Shown here: in pieces, positions 1 to 64,000 of the stretch
Numbering within the stretch: the stretch's first letter is position 1
Layout: every line of letters begins with the position of its first letter
From: Terriglobales bacterium
GTDB taxonomy: Bacteria; Acidobacteriota; Terriglobia; Terriglobales; SCQP01
Assembly (NCBI GenBank): GCA_035531375.1
Contig: DATKSZ010000014.1
Coordinates: 23,031 to 87,030 of the forward strand
Direction of reading: 5' to 3'
DNA length: 64,000 nt
Notes under the pieces: model-generated
Seen by the model: the letters and a program-made list of their open reading frames with translations, nothing else
Told to the model about the DNA's origin: nothing
The model's database searches: none
Made by a program: the position numbers and the translations under genes

Positions 1-447
1 TCCGTAGAAGGCCCGCCGGTGGCTGTAGTCGGCCAGCAGGTGGGTGGGCCCGGCGGGTTGCCAGAGATAGGCCTGCCGCGCCGCCGGGGAGGGCGCGGCG
101 CCCCCGCGCCCGCGCCCGCTGGGCAGCGTCGCCGTGACCGCCGCCGGCGCCTCCGGCGCGCGCCCGCCACCCGGCTGCGCCTGCAAATGGTCGAGGCAGG
201 AGAGCGGATAGGCGGCCAGCGTCATCGCCTCCATCCGGTTGAGCGGCGGCGTCTGCGCCTCCGGCAGCGTTTGCAGAAAGGCCTGCACGCTGTGCGCCGC
301 CGGCGCGGCCAGCGGCGCTGGCGCCGCCGCCAACGGCGATGCCGCGCCCGCGGCCGCCGGCTGCGAACGGCAGCCGGCCAGCGCCAGCCCGGCCAGCGCG
401 GCGGCGAGCGCCAGGGAAGTCCGGCGGAGGCCAAGTCGCTGCTTCAT
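1..447 (-). CDS. Lipoprotein, DUF2891-like (5' part only; continues past the left edge of the window)
   Basis: Own translation of the minus strand from ATG at 447: MKQRLGLRRTSLALAAALAGLALAGCRSQ... This shows a signal peptide plus an LAGC lipobox. It continues ...AAYPLSCLDHLQ...LLADYSHRRAFYG and stays open to position 1. There is an ATGA start/stop overlap with the upstream MFS gene. It is absent from the ORF track because no stop lies inside the window. The family name is from memory of DUF2891 N-terminal motifs and is unverified. Confidence 0.45.
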   Translation of the reverse strand, partial: MKQRLGLRRTSLALAAALAGLALAGCRSQPAAAGAASPLAAAPAPLAAPAAHSVQAFLQTLPEAQTPPLNRMEAMTLAAYPLSCLDHLQAQPGGGRAPEAPAAVTATLPSGRGRGGAAPSPAARQAYLWQPAGPTHLLADYSHRRAFYG

Positions 448-1724: not shown

Positions 1725-4700
1725 CTATTTGCCATCGGGCGGCTTCGGCACCGGCGGTTCCGAGCTGGGCAGGATGGGCCGCGCGCGCACCACCGACCAG
1801 GTCACCCCCTGGGCGGTCTCGCGCTCGCTGCGGGTGATGCGCAGCTTGCCCTGCGCCAGATACTTCAAGTGCACCTCGTCGTAGGCCAGCCCGGCCGAGG
1901 CCACCAGCTTCATGTAGTCGCCGTGCGCGGTCTCGTCCGGCGCCTCGGTGTAGCCCTGGTCCCAGGTCACCGCCGCGTTGGCGCCCGGGCCCGCCATCCC
2001 GCCCCGCCCGGGCCCGGTGGCGCCCTTCAGCGGCATGTAGATGCGGATGCCCTCCACCAGCGGCTGCTGCATGTTGTCCGGCTGGAAGGCCTGGCCCCAG
2101 CGCTGGTAGCGCGCGTTCATGCGCTCCTCCAGCGGCAGCAGCCCCGGCACCTGGCGCTCGGCGTCCACGATGCGGTCGCGCAGCGCGTAGGTCACCGCCT
2201 CCGAGTGGGTGTCGGTGGTGGTGTCGCGCTGGTAGCCCAGGCTGGTGAACCAGCCCCGCGGGATCCACCAGGTGCGGCCGTTGTTGGCCCCGTCGCGGCT
2301 CTGCACCCAGGCGCTGTACTCGCTGAAGGGCTGCACCCACTCGTGCGAGGGATAGCCGTGCGGGTTCAGGAACGCGTCCGGATTCCACTGCTGCAGCAGC
2401 AGCCGGCGCGTGCGCGACTCGGGATACACCGGGTCCACGTCGGCCTGCCCGCTGGAGACGTCCGCCGCCAGCGCCCCGTGGTAGCCCAGGTGCAGCAGGT
2501 TGTCGGGCATGATCTTGGCCTCCATCACCGACAGCTTGGCCCCGTCCGGGTTGTCAATCGGATGCAGCACCACGTTCACCTGCTTCAGGTAGGCGCGCAC
2601 CGCCGGGTCGCTCACCAGCAGCTCCGCCAGCCGCTCCACGTGGCTGGTGCTCGAAACCTCGTTGGCGTGCTGGCGCGCCGAGTAGACGATGGCCGCCTTG
2701 AGCGTGGTCTGCTTCGCCCACGAGATCAGCTTCGACGGTGAGGGCAGCATGAGGTCGGCCACCCAGATCACCTGGCCCAGGTAGCTGCGCCCCATGGAGT
2801 AGACATTGACGCCGGGGTAGGTCGCCAGCCGCGCCAGGATGGCGGCGCTCTGGTTGGGCCCGATCGGCTCCCGCCACTGCACGAAGGGGCGCCCCTGCGG
2901 GTTGAGCGGGATGGGCGCGACCGTGGCGATCTGCGGCCGCGGATGCAGCGGCGGCGCCACCCGCCAGCTCGCCAGCACGCGCCGCTCGGGGGTGCGGAAG
3001 GGCACGCCCAGCGGCCGCGGCAGTTGCAGCTCGATCGCCATGCGCCCCAGGCCGGGGTAGGCCAGCTCGTCCGGATAGAGCCCGGCGGCGTGCATCGCCT
3101 CCAGCGCGCGCAGCTCCCCCTCCGCCTGCTCCACCGTGAACATGCTGCGCTCGAGCTGCTGCCGCCCCGCCAGCTTCTCCCACGCCGCCATGTCGTAGCG
3201 CTGCGCGTCGGCCGGCAGCAGCCAGAGGAGGTCCTCCACCCCGGCCGCGCCCGCCCGCACCCGCGCCCCGATCAGCCGCGGCTGGAACGCTCCCGCCAGC
3301 ACCGGCAGGTTGCGCAGCTTGCTGTGCGCATGCCCCTGCGCGTCGGTCCAGCTCAGCCGCACCAGCGGGTTGGGCGCCGCCTTGCCGTAGAACTCGATGT
3401 GCACCTCCCCGTCCTGGCCGTCCGCGGAGGGGTGCATCACCGGGATGATGCGGCCCACGTAGTTCTCCGGCCGCCCGTTTTTCAGGTCGCCCAGCGTGTC
3501 AATGAAGGTCTCGGTGGCGTAGAAGACGTCCTCCTGCAGCGCCTCGATCGAGGAAATCCGCTCCTTGTCCACCCCGATGTTGTAGTTCGGCTCGGAGAGG
3601 TGAAAGTCCATCTTCAGCGTGTCGAACGGCGGCACGTACTCCGGCCGCAAGTTGCCGTGCGCCTGCGCCATGATGAAGCGGTAGACGCGCGGCAGCGTCA
3701 CCGTCTGGTAGTGGTCCCAGAAGCGCTCGATGTCGGTCGGGATGCGCTGGTCCAGCACCACGCGGCCGCCCTGCGCCAGGCGCACCCAGCCCGTCTCCAC
3801 CTGCACGTCCTCGTAGGAGCGGATCACCCCGCTGTAGGGCTGCATCACCGCCGCCACGGTGAAGTGGCGCGCCAGCAGCAGGCGCCCGCCGGCGTCGTAG
3901 GCGCGCACCTCGTAGGTGGGGCTGGGCGGGTCGTTGGGTGGATCGGCCAGCGCGATCTGCTCCGCCGTCTCCACCGCGGGCGCGGTGTTGATCTCGCGCA
4001 GGTGGATGTCGGCGAGCGGAATTTTGAGCTGCTTCGCCAGCACCTCGTCCACCGGATAGAGCTCCTGCATCCAGCGCGCCGGCGAGTACATGTCGCGCAG
4101 CCCGGTGGCGTCCACGTCCTTGGCCGCCTCGATCTCCAGCCGCGCCACCGGCCGGCCCGCCAGCTCGGGCTCGATCTCGTCCTCCAGCCAGCTATAGCCC
4201 TGCTTGTAGGCGTCCAGCACCTCCACCCGCGTCTGCCCCGGGTCGGCGCCGGCCTGGGTGAGGATGTCGCGCAGTTGCGCCGCCAGCCGCTGCCGCTCCT
4301 GCGGCCCCTCGCTCACGCGGGCGATGAGCGTCGCCGGCTGGCCGCGCTCGAGTTTGGGCGCGGCGCCGCGCACGTCGTTGAGCAGCGTGGTGCCCTCCCA
4401 GGGAATGTGGATGTCCTCGGTGAACACCGGCTTGCCCTGGTGGAAGGGGAACTCGGGGTTGGAGTAATGCAGGTCGGGGTTGGAGGCGCAGCACTGCGTG
4501 CCGGCGCGCAGGCTGGCCGCCTCCACCGTCGCCGGAACATGCAACTCGTCCTGGATCTGGGTGCGCACGAATCCCGCCATCTTCGGGTCCACCAGGTCGG
4601 CATAGAGCTCGGCGTGGACATGGCTCACCGGCCCCGCTTGCGCCGCGATCTGCCCCAGCCAGCGGTGCAGGAAGAACAGCCCCGCCGCCGCCTGCCCCAC

Positions 4701-6122
4701 CCCCGAATGCAGCGAAAAGAACTGGTGCAGGTCGTAGCGGATATCCTCCAGCGAGGTGTGCTGCTTGCCCACCCGCCAGACATTGGGCAGGTGGTCGGCG
4801 GCCAGGTCGAGCGCGGCGGCGGCGCCGCGCTCGTCGCCGCGCACCAGCAGCGCCGCGTGCGCGCCGAAGGCGCGGTCCACCACGCGCAGCTCGCCCTCGC
4901 CCGGAGCCAGCGCGGGCGCGGCCTGGGCGGCGGCGGTGTCTTCGGCCTGCAGTTTCTTCTCCACCGCGCGCGCCAGCGGGCTGTCGCCCGCCACCACCGG
5001 CTGCTCGCTGATCCGGTCCAGGTGGGCGCTGGCAGCGGGCGAGGCCAGCGGCAGCGTCAGGGCGGTGGTCTCCAGCCCCATGCGCGCGGCCAGGTTGGCC
5101 ATCGCCACCCCGGCCGCCCCCGCCGGCACATACAGGTGCGAGGTCAGCGAGGCCGGCACCGGCACCCGCCCGCCCGCGCCGAAGAGGCCGTGGTTGGTGT
5201 ACAGCGTGGCCAAGTCGAGGCCAGCGGGCCCGGCCGCCGCCCCGCCGCCGGGCGCGCCGCGCCCGCCCGCCGCCCCGCTGCCCCCGGGCGCGGCTGCCCC
5301 GCCCGCACGGCCCGCTGCCCGGGCCGCCGGCGCGGGCGGCGCCGGAAAGGTCTGCGGGTGGAACGGCTTGGGGTTGGTCGCGGAGATCGCCGCCCCGCCC
5401 AGTACGAACAATTCATGCACGGCGGCGAGGTGCCCGCCGGCGAACGCCCGTCGCAGCTCGGCCGCCGTCACCGCTCCGCTCGCGCTGAGGTAGGCCTTGA
5501 CGATGCCGGGCTGGCCCGCTTGATAGTCCAGCCCCACCAAGTCGGCGTGGGCGGCGGGCGCGGCGGCATTGACGGCGGCGGCGATGGCGGCCAACTCGTC
5601 CCCGCCCCCCCCCACCTTCCACTGGTAAGGGGCGCGGGCGCTGAAGGCATCGGCCGCGGCGGTCAGTCCGGCCGCGTCGCCCAGCACCAGCAGGTTGTCG
5701 TTGCTGCCCGGCGCCAACTCCACCACCCGCCCCTCGCCTCGCGCCAGGCGGAACCCCCAGGTGCGGGCCGCCCCCGCCTCGGCCGCCGGCACCGCCCCGG
5801 CGCCCACATAGATCGCCGGACCCGCCGCCCCCGCCGGCGCCGCCACCACCAGCGGCGGCGTCAGCCCCAGCGTCCCGTAGGCCAGCCGCGCCGCCAAGTT
5901 GGCCGCCGCCGCGTTCTCGGCCGCGCTGGGCTGCGCCGGCACCACGATGTGGCCGCGGATGGTGTCCGCCAGCCCGTCGTGGTTGGTGTCCTGCAGCATC
6001 CAGCCGGTGGCGAACGCCCGGCTGAAAGCGTCCCCCGCCCCCGTCTTGGCGCGCCCCCGCGGCGCCTGCGCTCCTACCCCCACGATGGCGAACAACACGG
6101 CAATCAACCGGATGCGGCGCAT
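1725..6122 (-). CDS. Large secreted protein (1465 aa) with a C-terminal M14 zinc-carboxypeptidase-like domain
   Basis: Track ORF 1725..6677 trimmed to ATG 6122, which gives the signal peptide MRRIRLIAVLFAIVGVGAQA. The C-terminal region has M14-type motifs: YSARQHANEVSS (HxxE, nt 2658-2669), HPIDNPDG and NPHGYPSHEW. The N-terminal ~1000 aa have no motif I recognise. A Gly/Ala/Pro low-complexity linker lies at aa 259-301 (nt 5220-5348). Confidence 0.8.
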   Translation of the reverse strand: MRRIRLIAVLFAIVGVGAQAPRGRAKTGAGDAFSRAFATGWMLQDTNHDGLADTIRGHIVVPAQPSAAENAAAANLAARLAYGTLGLTPPLVVAAPAGAAGPAIYVGAGAVPAAEAGAARTWGFRLARGEGRVVELAPGSNDNLLVLGDAAGLTAAADAFSARAPYQWKVGGGGDELAAIAAAVNAAAPAAHADLVGLDYQAGQPGIVKAYLSASGAVTAAELRRAFAGGHLAAVHELFVLGGAAISATNPKPFHPQTFPAPPAPAARAAGRAGGAAAPGGSGAAGGRGAPGGGAAAGPAGLDLATLYTNHGLFGAGGRVPVPASLTSHLYVPAGAAGVAMANLAARMGLETTALTLPLASPAASAHLDRISEQPVVAGDSPLARAVEKKLQAEDTAAAQAAPALAPGEGELRVVDRAFGAHAALLVRGDERGAAAALDLAADHLPNVWRVGKQHTSLEDIRYDLHQFFSLHSGVGQAAAGLFFLHRWLGQIAAQAGPVSHVHAELYADLVDPKMAGFVRTQIQDELHVPATVEAASLRAGTQCCASNPDLHYSNPEFPFHQGKPVFTEDIHIPWEGTTLLNDVRGAAPKLERGQPATLIARVSEGPQERQRLAAQLRDILTQAGADPGQTRVEVLDAYKQGYSWLEDEIEPELAGRPVARLEIEAAKDVDATGLRDMYSPARWMQELYPVDEVLAKQLKIPLADIHLREINTAPAVETAEQIALADPPNDPPSPTYEVRAYDAGGRLLLARHFTVAAVMQPYSGVIRSYEDVQVETGWVRLAQGGRVVLDQRIPTDIERFWDHYQTVTLPRVYRFIMAQAHGNLRPEYVPPFDTLKMDFHLSEPNYNIGVDKERISSIEALQEDVFYATETFIDTLGDLKNGRPENYVGRIIPVMHPSADGQDGEVHIEFYGKAAPNPLVRLSWTDAQGHAHSKLRNLPVLAGAFQPRLIGARVRAGAAGVEDLLWLLPADAQRYDMAAWEKLAGRQQLERSMFTVEQAEGELRALEAMHAAGLYPDELAYPGLGRMAIELQLPRPLGVPFRTPERRVLASWRVAPPLHPRPQIATVAPIPLNPQGRPFVQWREPIGPNQSAAILARLATYPGVNVYSMGRSYLGQVIWVADLMLPSPSKLISWAKQTTLKAAIVYSARQHANEVSSTSHVERLAELLVSDPAVRAYLKQVNVVLHPIDNPDGAKLSVMEAKIMPDNLLHLGYHGALAADVSSGQADVDPVYPESRTRRLLLQQWNPDAFLNPHGYPSHEWVQPFSEYSAWVQSRDGANNGRTWWIPRGWFTSLGYQRDTTTDTHSEAVTYALRDRIVDAERQVPGLLPLEERMNARYQRWGQAFQPDNMQQPLVEGIRIYMPLKGATGPGRGGMAGPGANAAVTWDQGYTEAPDETAHGDYMKLVASAGLAYDEVHLKYLAQGKLRITRSERETAQGVTWSVVRARPILPSSEPPVPKPPDGK

Positions 6123-52411: not shown

Positions 52412-53179
52412 TCAGCGGGCGGTGTAGCCGCCGTCAATCACCAGCTCGGAGCCGGTGATGAACTTGGCCTCGTCGGAGGCGAGGTAGACCACCCCGTAGG
52501 CGATGTCGTCGGGCTCGCCCATGCGGCCGATGGGGTGGAGGGCCGCCACCGCCGCCCGTCCGGCCTCCAGATCCCCGCGGCCGCTCAGGAAGCCCTCCAC
52601 CATCGGGGTCCAGATGAAGCCCGGGTGCACCGAGTTGACGCGAATGCCGTCGCGGGCGTACAGCAGCGCGTCGGTCTTGCTCATCAGCCGGATCGCGCCC
52701 TTGGAGGCGTGGTAGGGCGGCGCATCGGGCGCCCCCACCAGCCCGTAGATCGATGACAGATTGATGATGCTGCCCCCGCCCGCCCGCTGCAGGTGCGGGA
52801 TGGCGTGCTTGCTGCAGAAGAACGCCCCCTTGACGTTGACCGCCTGCACCGCGTCCCACTCTGCCTCGCTGAGCTCGTGGGTGGGCTTGTTGGCGCCGGC
52901 GATGCCGGCGTTGTTGACCAGCACGTGGAGCGCGCCGAAGTGCCGGGCCGCGTCGGCGACCGCGTCGCGCACCTCGCCCTCGCGCGTCACATCCGCGTGC
53001 CAATACCGCACCGGGAAGCCGCGGCCCGCCATTTGCTCCGCCAGCGCCTGGCCGGCGGCATCTTGGATGTCAAAGCAGGCCACCGCCGCGCCCGCCTCGG
53101 CCATGCGCAGCACGCACGCCGCGCCAATGCCCATGGACCCGCCGGTGACGATCGCGACTTTGCCCTGCAGCCGTCCCAT
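52412..53179 (-). CDS. SDR family oxidoreductase (classical)
   Basis: GKVAIVTGGSMGIGAA is the TGxxxGxG motif. NNAG is present, and the catalytic SSIYGLVG...YHASKGA (YxxxK) follows. Confidence 0.9.
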   Translation of the reverse strand: MGRLQGKVAIVTGGSMGIGAACVLRMAEAGAAVACFDIQDAAGQALAEQMAGRGFPVRYWHADVTREGEVRDAVADAARHFGALHVLVNNAGIAGANKPTHELSEAEWDAVQAVNVKGAFFCSKHAIPHLQRAGGGSIINLSSIYGLVGAPDAPPYHASKGAIRLMSKTDALLYARDGIRVNSVHPGFIWTPMVEGFLSGRGDLEAGRAAVAALHPIGRMGEPDDIAYGVVYLASDEAKFITGSELVIDGGYTAR

Positions 53180-53215
53180 GGCCCTTCAGCGGCTTGGATG
53201 CCGATCGGAGAAGCT

Positions 53216-53291
53216 TGGTAGCGCCAGCGGGATTCGAACCCGCGATCTTCGCCTTGAGAGGGCGACGTCCTAACCGCTAGACGATGGCGCC
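53216..53291 (-). tRNA. tRNA-Glu (anticodon CUC)
   Basis: The minus strand reads GGCGCCA TC GTC TAGCGGTTAG GAC G TCGCC CT-CTC-AA GGCGA AGATC GCGGG TTCGAAT CCCGC TGGCGCT A CCA. This folds by hand into a 76-nt cloverleaf with a 3-bp D stem typical of tRNA-Glu, a GTTCGAATC T-loop and an encoded CCA. Position 1:72 is a G:U pair. Confidence 0.9.
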
Positions 53292-53387
53292 ACGGCCACG
53301 AACCTGTTCGCCAAAAGGCGCTGCTGGCTCACACAGGTTCAGCTTCCACTGTAGCAAGCGCGGCGGTGGCTGGCAACCCGGAGCCGC

Positions 53388-53897
53388 CTACCGCCGCCCG
53401 GCGGCGCCGTAATGCTTCGCCAAGTAGCCGCGCACGTTGGTTGGCGCGGGCCCCAGCGCGCCTGCGGCGCGCGTCCCGCTTGTGCTCGCGCCGACTTGGG
53501 GGCCCGTGGCCCCAAGTCGGCGCTGCGCTTCGCTGGGGCCGCGCCGCATTTGTTTCCCGGGGGCGCAGACGCGCCACTGGCGCGTCTGCCCCTGCGGAAT
53601 TTCGCAACCTTTCGCGCCGATTTTGCCGGCAGGCAAAGCGGCGCGACCCCCGCGAGCGGCCAGTTCCCGCGGCGAGGCTTCCAGCCCGTTGTCCTGCATC
53701 TCGTCGAGCGTGTCCCGCCACTGGGCCAGCGTTTGCCGGGTTGCGACCACCCGCGCCAAGCCATGGCAATCCGAGCACAGCCGCACCGTGGCGGCCTTGC
53801 CCGCGCCCGCCGGCGATGGCCGGATCCGGCGGCAGCGCCGGCGCGACCGCCCGCCCAAGGCGGCGGCGAAGCCGCCGCGGGCGCGGACGCGGCGCAT
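53388..53897 (-). CDS. Small CxxCH-motif ORF (cytochrome c-like) carrying a ~220-bp palindromic repeat in frame; possibly a pseudogene
   Basis: The 169-aa ORF starts 4 nt after the upstream methyltransferase stop. ...AATVRLCSDCHGLARVVATRQTLAQWRDTLDEMQDNGLEASPRELAA is followed by a ~72-aa repeat-encoded insert, then NVRGYLAKHYGAAGRR. The two flanks together resemble a single small haem-binding domain (CxxCH...W...M...YLAK..G). No convincing signal peptide is visible, which argues for decay or a wrong start. Confidence 0.3.
   Translation of the reverse strand: MRRVRARGGFAAALGGRSRRRCRRIRPSPAGAGKAATVRLCSDCHGLARVVATRQTLAQWRDTLDEMQDNGLEASPRELAARGGRAALPAGKIGAKGCEIPQGQTRQWRVCAPGKQMRRGPSEAQRRLGATGPQVGASTSGTRAAGALGPAPTNVRGYLAKHYGAAGRR
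53439..53661. repeat. Multi-hairpin GC-rich repeat element, copy A (223 bp)
   Basis: It aligns by eye along its whole length with 63581-63858, in the same orientation. It contains at least four stem-loops: 53456-53472, 53488-53523, 53559-53592 and 53613-53645. Confidence 0.75.
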
Positions 53898-53900
53898 GGC

Positions 53901-56038
<2,138 letters not shown>

Positions 56039-56088
56039 CTAAAGCGTACACTCCATGGTATTTCCTTCCCCTCCCGCGCACCCCCCCC

Positions 56089-58830
56089 ATGCCCGCCAAC
56101 CGCGATGTCGGACCCTTCGAGGTGATCGAGCCCTTGGGCGCCGGCGGCATGGGCGAGGTCTTCAAGGCCCGCGACCGCCGCCTCAACCGCCTGGTGGCGT
56201 TGAAGTTTTTGCCCGAGGCCGCCACCCCCGCCGCCCGCGAACGCTTCCAGCGCGAGGCCACCGCCATCGCCGCCCTCAACCATCCCCACATCTGCACCCT
56301 CTTCGAGATCGGCGACGACCACGGTCGGCCCTACCTGGTGCTCGAGCTGCTCGAGGGCGAGACCTTGCGCGCCCGGCTCGCCCGCGGCCCGCTGTCGCCG
56401 GAGCAGTTGCTCGACTGGGCGGTGCAGATCGCCGACGCCCTCGACGCCGCCCACCGCCGCGGCATCCTCCACCGCGACCTCAAGCCCGACAACATCTGGG
56501 TCTCCCCCGGCGGTCATCTCAAGGTGCTCGACTTCGGCCTCGCCCGCCTCGAAGCCCCCGATCCCTCCGACGCCGCCGGCGCCACCCTCACCGACGGCCG
56601 CACCCTCACCTCGCCCGGCATGACCCTCGGCACCATCCCCTACATGTCGCCCGAGCAGGCCCGCGGCGAAACCCTCGACCCCCGCTCCGACCTGTTCAGC
56701 TTCGGCTCGGTCTTCTACGAGATGGCCTGCGGACGCCGCGCCTTCCCCGCCAGCGGTGCCGCCGACTCCATCGCCGCCATCCTCAAGGAGCAGCCCCCCC
56801 GCCTCGGACAACTCCGCCCCGAATTGCCCCTCAAATTCGACGAGGTCGCCAGCCGCTGCCTGGAGAAAGACCCCGATCTGCGCTACCAGTCTGCCGCCGA
56901 CTTGCGCAGCGACTTGAAGCGCCTCAAGCGCGAGAGCGGCACGCTCACCCCAGCCCCCGCCTCCGACCCCAGCGCGCCCGCCACGGTCGCCCTGCCCGCG
57001 CCCCCGCCCCGCCCCAGCGCCGCCCCCCTCTCCTCCGACGCCCAAGTGCTGGGCGGCCTGGTCCGCCGCCACTGGCGCTGGCCCGCGCTGGCCGCCCTGG
57101 CGCTCGTCGCCGCCGCCCTGGCCTGGTGGCGCTTCGCCCCCCGGCCCCCGGCCGCGCCCATCAACCTGACCTTCCGCCAGCTCACCTTCACCGGCCACGT
57201 GCTCGACGCCGCCATCTCCCCCGACGGCAAGTTCCTCGCCCACGTGGACCTCAACCCCGGCGGCACCTCCCTCCACCTGCTCTCCATCGCCAGCGGCAGT
57301 GACGTGCAAATCGTCCCTCCCGGCGACGGTTGTTGCGCCGCCCCCACCTTCTCCCCCGACGGCAGCGCCGTCTACTTCCAGGCCAACGATCGCCTGGAGG
57401 CGGTCCCGGTGCTCGGCGGCGCGGTGCGCCCCATCGCCAGCCACGTCTGCAGCGGCGCCGGCTTCTCCCCCGACGGCAGCCAGATCGCCTACCTCACCGC
57501 GCCCACCGCAACCAGCCAACTCATCCTCGCCCGCCCCGATGGTGCGCAGCCGCGCGTGCTGCATGAAACTGCGCCCGGTGTTGGCTACCTGTCCACTTGC
57601 TGGGGCTCTCCCGGAGCGCTTGTCCATCCCCCCGCCTGGTCGCCCGACGGCCGCCTTCTCGCCGTGGCCAAATTCGGCAATGGCGTCGGCACCCACGTCG
57701 AGACCGTCAACACCGCCGACGGCCACGTCGCCGATGATCTCGCCCCCGACCTCAACTTTGGCGGGGCCGACCTGAACTGGCTGCCCGATGGCAGCGGCCT
57801 GGTCCTCACCGCCGCCATGCCCGCCTCGGCGGTCCCCCAAGCCTGGCTGCTGCCCTATCCCAGCGGTCCGGCCAAGGCGCTCACCAACGACCTGCAGGGC
57901 TACTCCAGCGCCAGCCTCTCCGCCCAGGGCGATCTCGTCCTCCTCCACAACGCTCCCCAATACTCCATCTGGGCACAAGCCTCCCCCCAGGCCGAACTGC
58001 GCCAGTTGCCCGGCGGCGGCTCCAACCAGGATGGTTTCAACGGCCTTGCCTGGACGCCCCAAGACGCTCTGGTCACCACCCGCACCTTCGGCGGCAAGGT
58101 GCAACTCTGGTCGGACAACGCCGACGGCACCGCCGCCCATCCCCTGCTGCCCGACGCGCCCTCGAGTCTCAGCGGTCCGGTGGTGGCGCCGAACGGACAG
58201 ATCCTCTTTTCCGCCGGCACCAAAGCCAATGATGTCTGGCGCGTCAATGCCGACGGCACCGGCCTCATCCGCTTCCAGCCCGCCGGCCCGGCCAGCCAAA
58301 ACTCACTGCCCACCCTGGTGGACGGCGGCCAAGCCGTGGTCTACCTGCACCTCCTGGGCAACCGTCAAACCCTTTGGCAGGCGCCACTCGGCGGCGGCCC
58401 CGCCCACCAGATTTGGTCCGGCAACGTCTTTGTGGACGGCAACCCCGCCTCCCCCGACGGCAACCGCCTCTTCGCCGAAACCATGGGTCCCGGCCAGTCC
58501 CACGTCGCCGCCATCATCCAACTCGACGGTGGTCAAGCCCAAGTCCATACCATCGCCCTCGACCACGCCACCATGCAGGGGCCCTACAATTGGACCCCCG
58601 ACGGCCGCGCCATCACCTACATCGTCAACCACGGCACCACCGACAACCTCTGGGCCTTTCCCCTCGACGGCCGCAAGCCCTACCCCCTCACCCACTTCAC
58701 CGACCTGCGCATCGCCGCCTACGCCTTCTCCCACGACGGCCGCCTCGCCCTCAGCCGCGGCAGCCCCAACACCGACGCCGTCCTCGCCACCGGCCTCGCC
58801 CCGGCGAACTCCGCCAGCCATGCCCACTAA
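56089..58830 (+). CDS. Ser/Thr protein kinase with TM segment and C-terminal TolB-like beta-propeller repeats
   Basis: ATG 56089. The Hanks motifs are LGAGGMGEVFKA, VALKFL, HRDLKPDN, DFGLA and MSPEQ. After a Pro-rich linker and one TM (WPALAALALVAAALAWW), repeated SPDG-type propeller blades follow. Confidence 0.9.
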   Translation: MPANRDVGPFEVIEPLGAGGMGEVFKARDRRLNRLVALKFLPEAATPAARERFQREATAIAALNHPHICTLFEIGDDHGRPYLVLELLEGETLRARLARGPLSPEQLLDWAVQIADALDAAHRRGILHRDLKPDNIWVSPGGHLKVLDFGLARLEAPDPSDAAGATLTDGRTLTSPGMTLGTIPYMSPEQARGETLDPRSDLFSFGSVFYEMACGRRAFPASGAADSIAAILKEQPPRLGQLRPELPLKFDEVASRCLEKDPDLRYQSAADLRSDLKRLKRESGTLTPAPASDPSAPATVALPAPPPRPSAAPLSSDAQVLGGLVRRHWRWPALAALALVAAALAWWRFAPRPPAAPINLTFRQLTFTGHVLDAAISPDGKFLAHVDLNPGGTSLHLLSIASGSDVQIVPPGDGCCAAPTFSPDGSAVYFQANDRLEAVPVLGGAVRPIASHVCSGAGFSPDGSQIAYLTAPTATSQLILARPDGAQPRVLHETAPGVGYLSTCWGSPGALVHPPAWSPDGRLLAVAKFGNGVGTHVETVNTADGHVADDLAPDLNFGGADLNWLPDGSGLVLTAAMPASAVPQAWLLPYPSGPAKALTNDLQGYSSASLSAQGDLVLLHNAPQYSIWAQASPQAELRQLPGGGSNQDGFNGLAWTPQDALVTTRTFGGKVQLWSDNADGTAAHPLLPDAPSSLSGPVVAPNGQILFSAGTKANDVWRVNADGTGLIRFQPAGPASQNSLPTLVDGGQAVVYLHLLGNRQTLWQAPLGGGPAHQIWSGNVFVDGNPASPDGNRLFAETMGPGQSHVAAIIQLDGGQAQVHTIALDHATMQGPYNWTPDGRAITYIVNHGTTDNLWAFPLDGRKPYPLTHFTDLRIAAYAFSHDGRLALSRGSPNTDAVLATGLAPANSASHAH

Positions 58831-61576
58831 CCGCGACATCGGCCCCTTCGAGGTGCTGGAAAAGCTGGGCGCCGGCGGCATGGGCGTGGTCTTCCAGGCC
58901 CGCGACCGCCGCCTCAATCGCCTGGTGGCGCTCAAGCTCCTGCCCGAGGCCTCCAGCGACGCCGCCCGCGAGCGCTTTCAGCGCGAGGCCCTCGCCATCG
59001 CCGCCCTCAACCATCCCAACATCTGCACTTTGTACGAGGCCGGCGAGCACGCCGGCCAGCCCTACCTGGTGATGGAGCTGCTCGAGGGCGAAACCCTCCA
59101 CGACCGCCTCCGCCGCGGCCCCGTGCCCCTGCCCCAGCTCGTGCAATGGGGCGCGGAGATCGCCGACGCCCTGCAGGCCGCCCACGCCAAGGGCATCCTC
59201 CACCGCGACCTCAAGCCCGGCAACATCTTCATCACCCAGCGCGGCAGCGCCAAGGTGCTCGACTTCGGCCTGGCGCAGTTCGCCCTGGCCGGCGCCGCCG
59301 AGGCCGACGCCGCCACCCTCGCCGGCACCGCCCCCGGCGCCGCCGCCGGCAAGCAGCCGCTCACCACCCCCGGGGCCACCCTCGGCACCGCCGCCTACAT
59401 GTCGCCCGAGCAGGCCCGCGGCGAATTGCTCGACGCCCGCAGCGACCTCTTCAGCCTGGGCGTGGTGCTCTACGAGATGGCCGGCGGCCAGCCGCCCTTT
59501 CAAGGCCGCACCTCCGCCGATCTTTCCGCCGCCATCCTCATGCGCATCCCGCCGCCGCCCAGCTCGCTGCGCCCCGAGATCCCGCCCCGGCTCGACGACA
59601 TCATCGCCCAGTGCCTGGAGAAAGACCCCGATCTGCGCTTCCAGTCCGCCGCCGAGCTGCGCGTCGGCCTCCGCCGGCTGCTGGGAACCTCCTCCTCGGG
59701 TGCCCCCTCGTCCAGCCCCAACGTTCTCTCCACCCCCGGCCTGCCACCGCCCTCCACGCCCGCGCCCGCCTCCGCCACCGCGGTCGCCCCCGCGCCCCGC
59801 CCCCGCTGGGCCCTGCCCGCCGCCGCCTTCGTGGTGCTCGCGCTGGCCGCGCTGGCCTGGTGGCGTTGGCAGCCCCGCCCCGCCCCGCCGCCAGCCGCCG
59901 CGGCCAACCTCAGCTTCCGCCCCCTGACCTTCAGCGGGCAGGTGCAAGACGCCGCCATCTCTCCCGACGGCAAGTTCCTCGCCCACGTGGATGCCTCCCC
60001 GCAAGGCACCTCCCTCCATCTGCTCTCGGTCGCCAACGGTAGCGACGTCGAGATCATGCCCCCCGCCCCCGGCTGCTGCCAATCGCCTTCGTTCTCCCCC
60101 GACGGCAGCACCGTCTATTTTGTCGAGGACAAGACCCTGAAAGCCATTCCTGTGCTCGGCGGCGCGGTGCGCACCATCGCCAATGAAGTCTGCAGCGGCG
60201 CCGGCGTCTCCCCCGACGGCAAGCAGATCGCCTACCTGGCGGCCCGGCCCGCCGGCGACGAGCTGACCGTCGCGCTCGCCGATGGCTCCCAGGCCCACGT
60301 GCGCAGCGATCCCAGCCCCTCCGGCTACGACAGCCGCTGCTGGATCAACGGCCCCCTGTATCCCGACACCCCCGCCTGGTCCCCCGACGGCCGCTGGATC
60401 GCGGTCGAGCGCAGCGGCGCCGGCACCGACGTCACCGACCACGTCGTGCTGGTCGGCGCCGCCGACGGCCGCCTCCAGGAGCTGGGCCCCGACCTCCCCC
60501 GGTCCGCCTCCGACTTGGCCTGGCGGCCCGATGGCCGCGGCGTGCTGGTCACCGACTCCATCCCCAGCACCTCGCCCTCGCAGATTCGCGAGATCGCCTA
60601 CCCCGGCGGCCAACTCCTACAACTGACCCACGACCTCCAGGGCTTTGACCGCGTCACCATCGCCTCCCAGGCTGGCGGCGCCATAGCGCTGGTTCACAGC
60701 AACCCGCAGTACTCCGTCTGGCGCCAGGCCATCCCCGGCGGTGCCTTCGAGCCGTTGCCCGGCGGTGGCGCCGACCAAGATGGATTTTTCGGCTTGGCCT
60801 GGACACCCCAAGGCCAGCTCGTCAGCGTGCGCTTCCCCGCCGGTCAAAGCCAACTCTGGCTGGAGGGCGCCGGCCCGCCCCAACCCATCCCGGTCGGCAA
60901 CCTCCCCACCTTTTTCATGGACCCCAACGTCTCTCCCAGCGGGCAAATTGTTTTTCAGGGCCTCAACCCTGCCGGAACCTGGAACATCTGGCGCGTGGAC
61001 CTGCAAGGGACCGGCCTGGCCAATCTCACCCCCGGCCTCAACGCCATCAACCCGGTCCTGGTGGAGGGCGGCAAATCGGTGGCCTTTCTGAACATGTACG
61101 CCGCCGGCAACGCCTCCCATCAGCGCCTCTGGATCGTGCCGCTGGCGGGCGGAGCCCCCCGCAAGACCTCGCCGATCGAGCTCTATACCAATTTCGGGCT
61201 TCCCCTGCCCGACCCAGAACGCGTCTTGGCGCCCGCCATGGTGCCCAACAGCAGCGTCGGCGACGTGGTCGAGATTAGCCTCAACGGCGCCGCGCCCATC
61301 GTCGTGAAGCCGCGCGAGTCCCGCGGCAGCTTCGCCGCCCCCTACGCCACCACCCCCGACGGGCGCGCCCTCGCCGGGGTCATCACCGATGGCAATACCG
61401 GCAACATCTGGGCCGCTCCGCTCGACGGCGGCCCGCTCTACGCCATCACCCATTTCACCGACCTCACGATCGCCGCCTACGCCTTCTCCCGCGACGGCCG
61501 CCTGGCCGTCAGCCGCGGCTCCCAGAACAGCGACGCCGTGGTCGCCACCGGCCTCGCCCCCGCTGGGCATCGGTAA
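58820..61576 (+). CDS. Ser/Thr protein kinase with TM segment and C-terminal TolB-like beta-propeller repeats (paralog of the upstream gene)
   Basis: ATG 58820 overlaps the upstream gene by 11 nt. The architecture is the same and the termini are near-identical: [39 protein letters not shown] versus [39 protein letters not shown], and [23 protein letters not shown] versus FTDLRIAAYAFSHDGRLALSRGS. Confidence 0.9.
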
Positions 61577-61604
61577 TCGCCGCCGCTCGCGGTATCATGC
61601 TGCC

Positions 61605-63566
61605 ATGGCGGACACGCTCCCGGCCCTCTTTCCCCCCTCCCCCGCGTTTTCCGCCCGCGCCCACGTCTCTAGCCGCGCCGCCTACGATGAACTCCGCCAG
61701 CGCGCCCTCGCCGACCCCCAAGCCTTCTGGAGCGAAAAGGCCCGCGCCGAGCTCCACTGGTTCCAGCCCTTCCACACCGCCCTCGACTGGCAGCCTCCCT
61801 TCGCCCAGTGGTTCGTCGGCGGCAAGATCAACGCCAGCTACAACTGCCTCGACCGCCACCTCGAGGGCTGGCGCCGCAACAAGGCCGCCCTCATCTGGGA
61901 GGGCGAGAACTTCGAGCAGCGCATCCTCACCTACCAGGACCTCCATCGCCGCGTCTCCAAGCTCGCCAACGCCCTGAAACGGCTGGGCTACACCGCCGGC
62001 GACCGGGCCATCATTTATTTGCCCATGATCCCCGAGGCCGCCGTCGCCATGCTGGCCTGCGCCCGTCTCGGCATCATCCACTCCGTCGTCTTCGCCGGCT
62101 TCTCCTCCGAAGCCCTGCGCACCCGCATGGACGACCTCGAGGCCCAACTGGTCATCACCGCCGACGGCGGCCGCCGCCGCGGCCGCGAGGTCCCGCTCAA
62201 GCAGAACGTGGACGCCGCCCTGGAACACTGCCCCGGCGTGCGCCACGCCCTCGTCTACCGCCATCTCGGCAGCGCCGTCGCCATGCGCCCCGGCCGCGAC
62301 CTCGACTGGACCGAACTGCTGCGCGGCGAGAGCGAAACCTGCCCCGCCACCCCGCTCGACAGCGAGCATCCCCTCTTCGTGCTCTACACCAGCGGCACCA
62401 CCGGCAAGCCCAAGGGCGTGGTCCACTCCACCGCCGGCTACCTGCTCCAGGTGCAGGCCACCATGCGCTGGGTCTTCGACCTGCGCGACGAGGACGTCTA
62501 CTGGTGCACCGCCGACATCGGCTGGGTCACCGGACACAGCTACATCATCTACGGCCCGCTCGCCGCCGGCGCCACCACCCTCATGTACGAGGGCGCCCCC
62601 GACTGGCCCGAGCCCGACCGCTTCTGGCGCCTGATCGCCAAGCACCGCGTCAACCTCTTCTACACCTCGCCCACCGCCATCCGCAGCTTCATCCGCCACG
62701 GCGACGCCTTCCCCGCCCGCCACGACCTTTCGAGCTTGCGGCTGCTGGGTTCGGTGGGCGAGCCCATCAACCCCTCCGCCTGGCGCTGGTACCACGAGGT
62801 GATCGGCAACGGCCGCTGCCCCATCGTGGACACCTGGTGGCAGACCGAGACCGGCAGCATCCTGCTCTCCCCCGTCCCCGGCGCGGTGGCCACCAAGCCC
62901 GGCTCCGCCACCCTGCCCCTGCCCGGCATTGACCCCGAAATCGTGGACCTCCAGGGCCAGCCCGTCCCCACCGGCCAGCAGGGCTACCTCATCTTGCGCA
63001 CCCCCTGGCCCTCGATGCTGCGCGGCCTCTACCGCGACCCCGAGCGCTACCAGGAGAGCTACTGGTCGCGCTACCCCGGCGCCTATTTCACCGGCGACGC
63101 CGCCCACCGCGACGCCGACGGCTACTACTGGATCCTCGGCCGCGTGGACGACGTCATCAACGTCAGCGGCCACCGCATGAGCACCATGGAGGTCGAGTCG
63201 GTGATGGTGCGCCACCCCGCCGTCGCCGAGGCCGCCGCCGTCGGCCGCCCCGACCAGCTCAAGGGCCAGGCCCTGGTCGTCTTTTGCACCCTCAAGGGCG
63301 CCGCCGCCCCCAGCGCCGAGCTCGAGGCCGAATTGCGCCAGTGGGTCGCCACCGAGATCGGCGCCTTCGCCCGCCCCGACGAGGTCCGCCTGGTCGAGGG
63401 CCTGCCCAAGACCCGCAGCGGCAAGATCATGCGCCGCCTGCTGCGCGAGCTGGTCGCCACCGCCCAGGTCCTGGGCGACACCACCACGCTCGAGGACTAC
63501 TCCGTCCTGCTCAACCTCAGCGGCGAGGGCAAGGACGAAGAAGAGCTGCTCGGCAAAGACGGCTAG
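61605..63566 (+). CDS. acs: Acetyl-CoA synthetase (AMP-forming)
   Basis: Track ORF trimmed to ATG 61605. [51 protein letters not shown] and [12 protein letters not shown] are all present. Confidence 0.95.
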
Positions 63567-63580
63567 ACTACAGGCCATCG

Positions 63581-63858
63581 GGTGGTGGGCGCGGGCCCCT
63601 GCGCGGCTGCGCCGCGCGTCCCGCTTGTGCTCACGCCGGCTTGGGGGCCCCGCGGCCCCAAGCCGGCGCTGCGCTGCTTCACTGCCCGGGGGGGCCGCGC
63701 CGATTCGCTTCCCGGGGGCGCAGACGCGCCCCGGGCGCGTCTGCCCCTGCGGAATTACGACCCCCCCAGAGCCCGAGGCGGGCTCTGGGGGCCCCGGTTC
63801 GCAGCCTTTCGCGCCGATTTTGCCAGCAGGCAAAGCGGCGCGACCCCCGCGATCGGCC
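63581..63858. repeat. Multi-hairpin GC-rich repeat element, copy B (278 bp, with one extra hairpin module)
   Basis: This is the same element as 53439-53661, lying intergenic 15 nt after the acs stop. An extra perfect 13-bp-stem hairpin lies at 63763-63791 (CCCCCAGAGCCCG-agg-CGGGCTCTGGGGG). Confidence 0.75.
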
Positions 63859-64000
63859 GGAGGCTGCAGCAAAGGCACGCGCCGCTCCAAGCCGTTGAGC
63901 CCCTCGGCCTAAAGCAGCACGTTGGCGTCGAGGGCGACCCTCACCGCTCGTGCATCTCGTCCCGGCTCTACTCGCAGCGCAGCGCCGCCAGCGGGTCCAC

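Follow-up and report, generated by a model that had tools for sequence, protein, structure and literature searches.

A hairpin repeat interrupts a small cytochrome c gene, probably a recent pseudogene, in a Terriglobales bacterium

The 64,000-nucleotide stretch of Terriglobales DNA analyzed here (the window) contains a small gene for a periplasmic lipoprotein cytochrome c into which a non-autonomous mobile repeat has inserted, and the gene is now most likely a recent pseudogene. The repeat entered the gene at one exact point with an insertion whose length is a multiple of three, and three small deletions have also stripped the gene of its lipobox and signal peptide. Two copies of the repeat are present in the window, copy A within the gene and copy B about 10 kb away, and a search with the family profile found no further copies or fragments in the 64 kb. 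The gene, its parts and the two repeat copies are as follows.

53388..53897, minus strand: interrupted gene for a small monohaem c-type cytochrome (P0001, ORF of 169 residues), probably a recent pseudogene (ORF list, ortholog and family)
53656..53813, minus strand: first part of the haem domain (AGAGKAATVRLCSDCHG...SPRELAA), with CxxCH, W and M intact (alignments)
53388..53436, minus strand: second part of the haem domain, consisting of the remaining C-terminal helix (VRGYLAKHYGAAGRR) and the stop codon (DNA alignment, ortholog model)
53814..53897, minus strand: degenerate 5' end, shortened by three deletions against the ortholog (8, 47 and 8 nt; DNA alignment, homologs)
53437..53655, plus strand: repeat copy A, a 219-nt insertion made up of a 201-nt core and an 18-nt extension of the central hairpin (filled/empty alignment)
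63582..63852, plus strand: repeat copy B, 271 nt long and intergenic, beginning 16 nt past the stop codon that closes an acetyl-CoA synthetase-like gene (alignment, profile)

Results

Insertion site of copy A

The original prediction, made from the window alone, described a small CxxCH ORF at 53388..53897 with a repeat in frame inside it, and the ORF (169 residues, minus strand) and its quoted sequence were confirmed in the ORF list. A protein database search with the joined flanking halves returned P0001 itself and a 117-residue protein, P0002, which is contiguous across the insertion site (...SPRELAAVRGYLAKYYG). P0002 is encoded on a 1.26-kb ENA contig (L002) that has the same gene order as the window: methyltransferase (its 3' end on L002), cytochrome, tRNA-Glu and short-chain dehydrogenase (SDR). 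An ortholog of the flanking halves without the insert therefore exists, and it bears out the claim that removing the repeat would join two halves of one compact haem domain.

DNA alignment of the window with this syntenic empty contig places the insertion point between ...GAACTGGCCGC and CGTGCGCGGCTAC. The insertion is exactly 219 nt, or 73 codons, and splits a host codon after its second base; the alignment leaves no freedom to move its boundaries, and the target is free of duplicated bases. On the minus strand, copy A contributes 73 extra codons to P0001. The anticipated reading of about 72 repeat-encoded residues followed by NVRGYLAKHYG was right to the residue in this alignment, and the insert length, measured against the empty site, is indeed a multiple of three. 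Copy A matches the family profile with an nhmmer E value of 3.6e-54 and is 96% identical to the family consensus.

High-copy repeats of 200–300 nt are a classic source of misassembly, and an assembler could in principle have placed a collapsed or chimeric repeat into the gene. We consider this very improbable, since the identical 169-residue product is found on 4–5 contigs of NCBI, JGI and ENA assemblies, some of them longer than 1 Mb, both copies A and B are reproduced on an independent ENA contig (L003), and comparison with the empty site shows junctions that are exact to the base.

The haem-domain family

With P0002 as the query, a full HMMER search recovered 1,744 homologs at E <= 1e-3, in many of which a unit of ~65 residues is repeated two to six times. 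In 18 aligned, mostly single-domain members, C62, C65, H66, W81, M88, G92, Y106 and L107 are invariant, and P0001 keeps every one of these residues (CxxCH, W, M, G and YL), with CSDCH at residues 41–45 as its CxxCH motif. P0001 is the only one of the 18 aligned sequences with an insertion at the copy A position, which is absent from all 16 of the other aligned homologs.

Searched against the PDB, the family profile matched 1jmx_A (1.5e-10), 1jju_A (2.1e-10) and 2blf_B (8.4e-7), plus other c-type cytochromes. The match to 1jmx_A and 1jju_A covers the dihaem region of quinohaemoprotein amine dehydrogenase (QH-AmDH), and 2blf_B is SorB. The top Foldseek matches of the P0002 AlphaFold model are the same proteins, with an rmsd of 2.0 Å over 68 columns for 1jju_A. 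The single sequence scores 14.3 bits against PF09098, under the gathering cut-off of 25.2 bits. The host-gene domain has the same CxxCH...R..W...M...G...YL pattern as the haem domains of the QH-AmDH alpha subunit (PF09098; 1jju, 1jmx) and SorB (2blf_B), from which it differs in being a stand-alone lipoprotein of ~65 residues. Judged by its sequence, it is a c-type cytochrome domain related to those of QH-AmDH alpha and SorB, and hence PF09098-related, and it is predicted to bind haem. The resemblance noted from the CxxCH...W...M...YL spacing is thus backed by 1,744 homologs and by profile matches to solved c-type cytochromes.

The C-terminal helix and divergence from the ortholog

The AlphaFold model of P0002 has a mean pLDDT of 84, with values of 92–97 over the domain. 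Residues 97–111 of the model form one C-terminal helix (pLDDT about 97), and the insertion point lies between residues 102 and 103, inside this helix and not in a loop. In the corresponding model of P0001, the insert (residues 82–154) is predicted as disordered, with a pLDDT of 38–54. The fold is still assembled around the looped-out insert, as is expected anyway of an alignment-driven model.

The first part of the haem domain is 96% identical to L002 at the nucleotide level, with 6 nucleotide differences in the first 53 codons, 4 of them synonymous and 2 non-synonymous; the flanking methyltransferase and SDR genes have DNA identities of 85% and 88%. The haem domain also has fewer synonymous differences than the flanking genes. 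Recombination, strong constraint or chance may possibly explain why the domain is more conserved than its flanks. The differences between the window gene and L002 (6 codons) are too few for dN/dS to separate the readings. The haem domain has diverged little from the ortholog, and the lesions are therefore likely to be recent, since many more changes would be expected of a gene that had been neutral since the lineages split. By the same token there is no substitution signature of decay, so that recent loss is indistinguishable from continued constraint at this level. Inactivation of the cytochrome gene is inferred to be recent, which fits the 96% identity of the insert to the family consensus.

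Loss of the export signal

The ortholog P0002 starts with MRRLRARCGFVAVLSLVAAGC, or more fully MRRLRARCGFVAVLSLVAAGCGP..., which by inspection is a lipoprotein-type signal peptide, and many homologs carry a signal peptide or a lipobox. P0001, which starts with MRRVRARGGFAAALGGRSRRRCRR, has neither by inspection and comparison with the homologs. DNA alignment with the ortholog places the breakpoints of the three deletions (8, 47 and 8 nt) near 53856/55, 53842/41 and 53815/14. They take out the hydrophobic core and the lipobox Cys, and between them the sequence has slipped out of frame, giving RRCRRIRPS where the ortholog has PPDPAI. A longer N-terminus is excluded because an in-frame TGA lies two codons upstream of the ATG. 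What had been described as a weak N-terminal signal peptide favoring decay is accordingly a signal destroyed by deletion.

During cytochrome c maturation, haem is attached to CxxCH only after export. Any product of the window gene would be cytoplasmic, haem-free and probably unfolded, because export precedes haem attachment and the C-terminal helix is split.

It is unlikely that the insertion is instead tolerated in the manner of a Rickettsia palindromic element (RPE), with the cytochrome made and working and the 73 repeat-encoded residues looped out at its surface. The insert length divisible by three, the stop-free frame, the retention of all invariant family residues and the 96% identity of the domain to the ortholog with few non-synonymous changes would fit such a protein, as would an AF2 model in which the fold is preserved and the insert forms a disordered loop. 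Against it, the export signal and lipobox are destroyed although CxxCH haem attachment needs export, the insert sits in the middle of a helix, and an open frame is expected from base composition, as described below. The original prediction had left tolerated RPE-like insertion and recent inactivation side by side; the lost signal and the split helix favor decay, and tolerance loses ground for this protein.

The open frame through the insert

G+C content is 70.6% in the window and 74% in the insert, and a 219-nt frame taken at random from the window is open about 52% of the time. The statement that the reading frame stays open is true of copy A, without going beyond what chance provides. The cytochrome ORF is still open because the element is a multiple of three long and stop codons are rare at 70–76% G+C. 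All six frames of the 201-nt consensus are free of stop codons. This was considered as a sign of selection and rejected, since 22% of dinucleotide-preserving (first-order Markov) simulations of the element are likewise stop-free in all six frames. With a core that is a multiple of three long, almost any insertion keeps the host ORF open, regardless of the fate of the protein.

The repeat family

A 20-mer taken from the repeat matched at least 118 metagenome contig stretches, nearly all of the matches listed coming from three related JGI samples (Ga0307372 to Ga0307374), and at least 147 distinct full copies were extracted from related metagenome contigs. Element length ranges from 201 to 340 nt, the modal length being 201 nt (33 of the 147 copies listed). 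Both ends are conserved: copies start with [A/T]TGGT[G/T]GGCGCGGGCCCC and finish with GGCGCGACCCCCGCGA, so that the element reads TCGCGGGGG... at one end and ...CCCACCAA at the other. Longer forms consist of the core with optional hairpin modules of +18, +33, +42, +32 and +14 nt at fixed positions, copy A being the core with the 18-nt extension of the central hairpin alone. Copy B differs from copy A by extra modules of 10 and 42 nt and by 1-nt indels.

Folding is far above that of shuffled sequences on either strand (z about −7). Across 42 aligned copies, three stems have compensatory two-sided changes (AU/UA 26:12, CG/GC 27:14 and AU/GC 25:12); predicted stems near both element ends are conserved, and the covariation is in internal stems. 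The two subterminal hairpins are not obviously alike. Neither repeat copy has an Rfam match at E <= 1 over 52900..64000, where only a tRNA was returned, and the region gave no blastn match to a plasmid collection and no match to viral contigs. The repeat is apparently an undescribed high-copy mosaic hairpin repeat.

Lengths are a multiple of three in 85 of the 147 copies, and the modes at 201, 219, 234, 243 and 276 nt all are. As a sign of selection, this bias of the modules is not convincing: the +42, +33 and +18 modules are multiples of three but the +32 and +14 modules are not, and the copies are not independent of one another.

The initial ~90 nt of the repeat are also found by themselves, repeated head to tail in arrays of, for example, 8 units of 93 nt or 8 of about 89 nt. 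Such arrays lie on L021 (minus strand, about 4345–5090), L052 (minus strand, about 1694–2460) and L025 (5735–6030). The units are nearly identical within each array, and the array on L052 terminates in a complete element.

Copies between genes

The contexts of the copies are 35 convergent, 47 tandem and 17 divergent gene pairs, with convergent pairs over-represented, and intergenic copies often lie within 60 nt of a stop codon. These observations bear on the idea that the dead gene is incidental and that copy A is kept for a role at the nucleic acid level, like that of REP or BIME sequences, as a terminator, as mRNA-stabilizing hairpins or as a protein-binding site, acting here between the methyltransferase operon and tRNA-Glu. 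The strong conserved hairpins with covariation would suit such a role, as would the enrichment of copies at gene 3' ends, many of them 0–60 nt after a stop codon, and the start of copy B 16 nt after one. However, orientation relative to the upstream gene is unbiased (58 same, 59 opposite), no Rfam family matches, and covariation is equally expected of single-stranded DNA hairpins recognized by a transposase. The 3' enrichment may just mark places where insertion is harmless, and no function is linked to copy A in particular. For copy A we regard this explanation as quite improbable; for the repeat family as a whole, a role as terminator or stabilizer is possible by analogy.

Copies inside genes

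Copies were called genic by a GC3-based frame test applied to the 147 copies listed, about 12 of which (about 8%) lie in genes. Once the element is taken out, translations of the flanks match Pfam domains that run across the junction. Three genic copies contain stop codons and one shifts the frame. The identified hosts are listed here with the length and state of the insert.

L044:3721-3921: UvrC (RNase H domain), 201 nt, open
L116:938-1138: AcrB family, 201 nt, open
L087: ImuB-like (IMS family), 276 nt, open
L041: maltokinase-like, 222 nt, open
L054: DDE transposase, 201 nt, open
L031: chorismate-binding enzyme, 219 nt, with a stop codon
L052: hybrid histidine kinase, a 220-nt copy that shifts the frame and a 201-nt copy with stops

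By their sequences, the insertions in the chorismate-binding enzyme and the histidine kinase clearly appear to break their hosts. The in-frame open copies inside uvrC and the acrB-, imuB- and maltokinase-like genes speak for tolerance, as does the enrichment of lengths divisible by three among genic copies (11 of 12, against 74 of the 135 others; Fisher p = 0.011). Set against this are the low genic fraction among the copies listed, compared with 19 of 44 genic copies for RPE-1, and the age of the genic copies, which are not older than intergenic ones and, if anything, lie slightly nearer the consensus. The family behaves as an extragenic mosaic repeat, of which genic insertions are a minority and partly destructive.

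The genic copies also bear on whether the repeat could be a mobile peptide cassette, coding in its own right. Four of them (window, L041, L044 and L091) share one reading frame, RGGRAALPAGKIGAKGCE...GALGPAPT. Other genic copies use other frames and the other strand, module indels shift the frame in copy B and in many others, and more than 90% of the copies listed lie outside genes; the encoded peptide is of low complexity and predicted to be disordered. A search with the peptide gave three short unannotated matches and is of limited value, having missed P0001 too. A peptide cassette is hardly credible on these grounds. The original prediction had already argued from the frame shift in copy B, which was traced to its extra modules and 1-nt indels, that the element is not a coding module, and the different frames and strands used in other hosts extend that argument. 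For the window gene, a recent pseudogene carrying the insertion remains the preferred reading.

Insertion target and mode of movement

A second filled/empty pair, L046:1314-1547 and L096:3659-3778, gives an insertion of exactly 234 nt (78 codons), again with no target duplication. This insertion apparently lies within a coding region (...EDILLQKLLWYRLGGE...). Downstream of the element on the plus strand, the base at +4 is G in 140 of the 147 copies listed, with a weak GCGG consensus and no strict tetranucleotide. Copy A is inserted just 5' of such an NNNG motif on the plus strand of the window. The empty sites of the two pairs carry GCGG and GCTG, and since both carry the flank motif it is part of the target. 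No terminal inverted repeats were detected, the local alignment of the two ends being no better than 32% of shuffles, and target-site duplication is absent from both filled/empty pairs.

Exact, duplication-free insertion, asymmetric ends, subterminal hairpins and a short adjacent target together form the signature of IS200/IS605- or REP-type elements, which move by a single-strand mechanism (PMC6006769). Movement of the repeat would resemble such hairpin-guided, single-strand transposition; by analogy, we put this forward as a conjecture. In Acidobacteria, class 3 Y1 enzymes are associated with about 600 hairpin repeats (PMC6006769). In about 0.9 Mb of DNA flanking the repeat, 948 ORFs were available. 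Among these ORFs, phmmer with an IS200 TnpA query found no match, a regular expression for the HUH...Y motif found none, and all-against-all clustering found no multi-copy transposase ORF.

Discussion

Relationship to known repeats

RPEs are short, palindromic, non-autonomous repeats that lie in frame within genes and add tens of residues to the protein (PMC10969869). The repeat described here is likewise palindromic, hairpin-forming, non-autonomous and sometimes in frame inside protein genes. It differs from RPEs in being longer (201–340 nt) and a mosaic of optional hairpin modules, and in belonging to an unrelated, free-living host of about 70% G+C; it probably has no sequence relationship to them, and no Rfam family matched it. 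About 8% of copies are genic here, with several disrupting their hosts, and the insert in the cytochrome lies in a helix of a protein that also lacks an export signal. As a description the RPE analogy is sound, since further copies are in frame in uvrC, acrB and imuB-like genes. As first drawn for copy A, the comparison is a fair one for the family; it does not amount to membership, and the tolerance it implied is unsupported for the cytochrome.

Closer parallels are found with REP/BIME sequences, REPINs (RAYT/TnpA(REP)) and IS200/IS605-derived elements, which have the same high copy number, extragenic preference for 3' ends, mosaic hairpin modules, duplication-free insertion and asymmetric ends without inverted repeats, and a short target beside one end that the flank motif here may parallel. 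REPs are 21–65 nt long with a GT[AG]G head, whereas the unit here is about 200 nt, and the target has one near-invariant position (G at +4) in place of the tetranucleotide of IS200/IS605 and REP elements. Classical MITEs (Correia/NEMIS, ERIC, Chunjie, Nezha) share the small size, multiple copies, structure and lack of coding capacity, and now and then become fused in frame to host ORFs (PMC10969869). Their defining features are terminal inverted repeats and target-site duplications, however, and neither was found for this repeat.

Host lineage and neighboring genes

A GTDB scan with a 22-mer of the repeat returned a single contig, DATKRG010000082.1 (L001), labelled as a Streptosporangiaceae MAG; the source genome of the window was not among the matches. 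L001 has copies at 2719–2918 and about 4690–4960, and shares two 100% identical ORFs with a Ga0307372 contig (L034). From their sequences, neighboring loci encode what look like ADOP-type permeases and BNR/sortilin-like proteins, in our reading characteristic of Acidobacteria. Either the bin label or the placement of L001 may be wrong.

Two further observations concern other parts of the window. At 55969..61573 on the plus strand lie two adjacent paralogous genes of about 915 residues each, both for a Ser/Thr kinase joined to beta-propeller repeats of the PD40/Tricorn-like kind; their protein sequences are about 51% identical, and DNA blocks 2.7 kb apart with 70–83% identity account for direct-repeat families D2–D4, D6, D10 and D14. 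At 314..399 on the minus strand, ARAGORN alone calls an 86-nt tRNA-Asn(GTT), a length unusual for tRNA-Asn, in a very GC-rich stretch with several low-complexity repeat matches.

Implications

For annotation, the label that suits the ORF at 53388..53897 is disrupted cytochrome c gene rather than hypothetical protein. The repeat family is worth masking or annotating, because gene callers read straight through it at 70% G+C. The window provides a base-exact record of one insertion event, with filled and empty sites, and about 150 further copies, including in-frame ones in conserved genes, offer data on how the repeat moves and how often proteins survive it. The element family, more than the cytochrome ORF, merits follow-up. 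A more speculative interpretation, which we rate as doubtful, is that the repeat is a selfish element that, like RPEs, is compatible with ORFs, and that it is spread in a free-living, GC-rich and probably acidobacterial lineage by a REPtron-like class 3 Y1 HUH enzyme. A core and several modules that are multiples of three long, with few stop codons, would then allow it to persist inside working genes such as uvrC, acrB, imuB and possibly the cytochrome gene. If this is true, "selfish DNA inside proteins" would extend beyond Rickettsia and would be tied to single-strand transposition.
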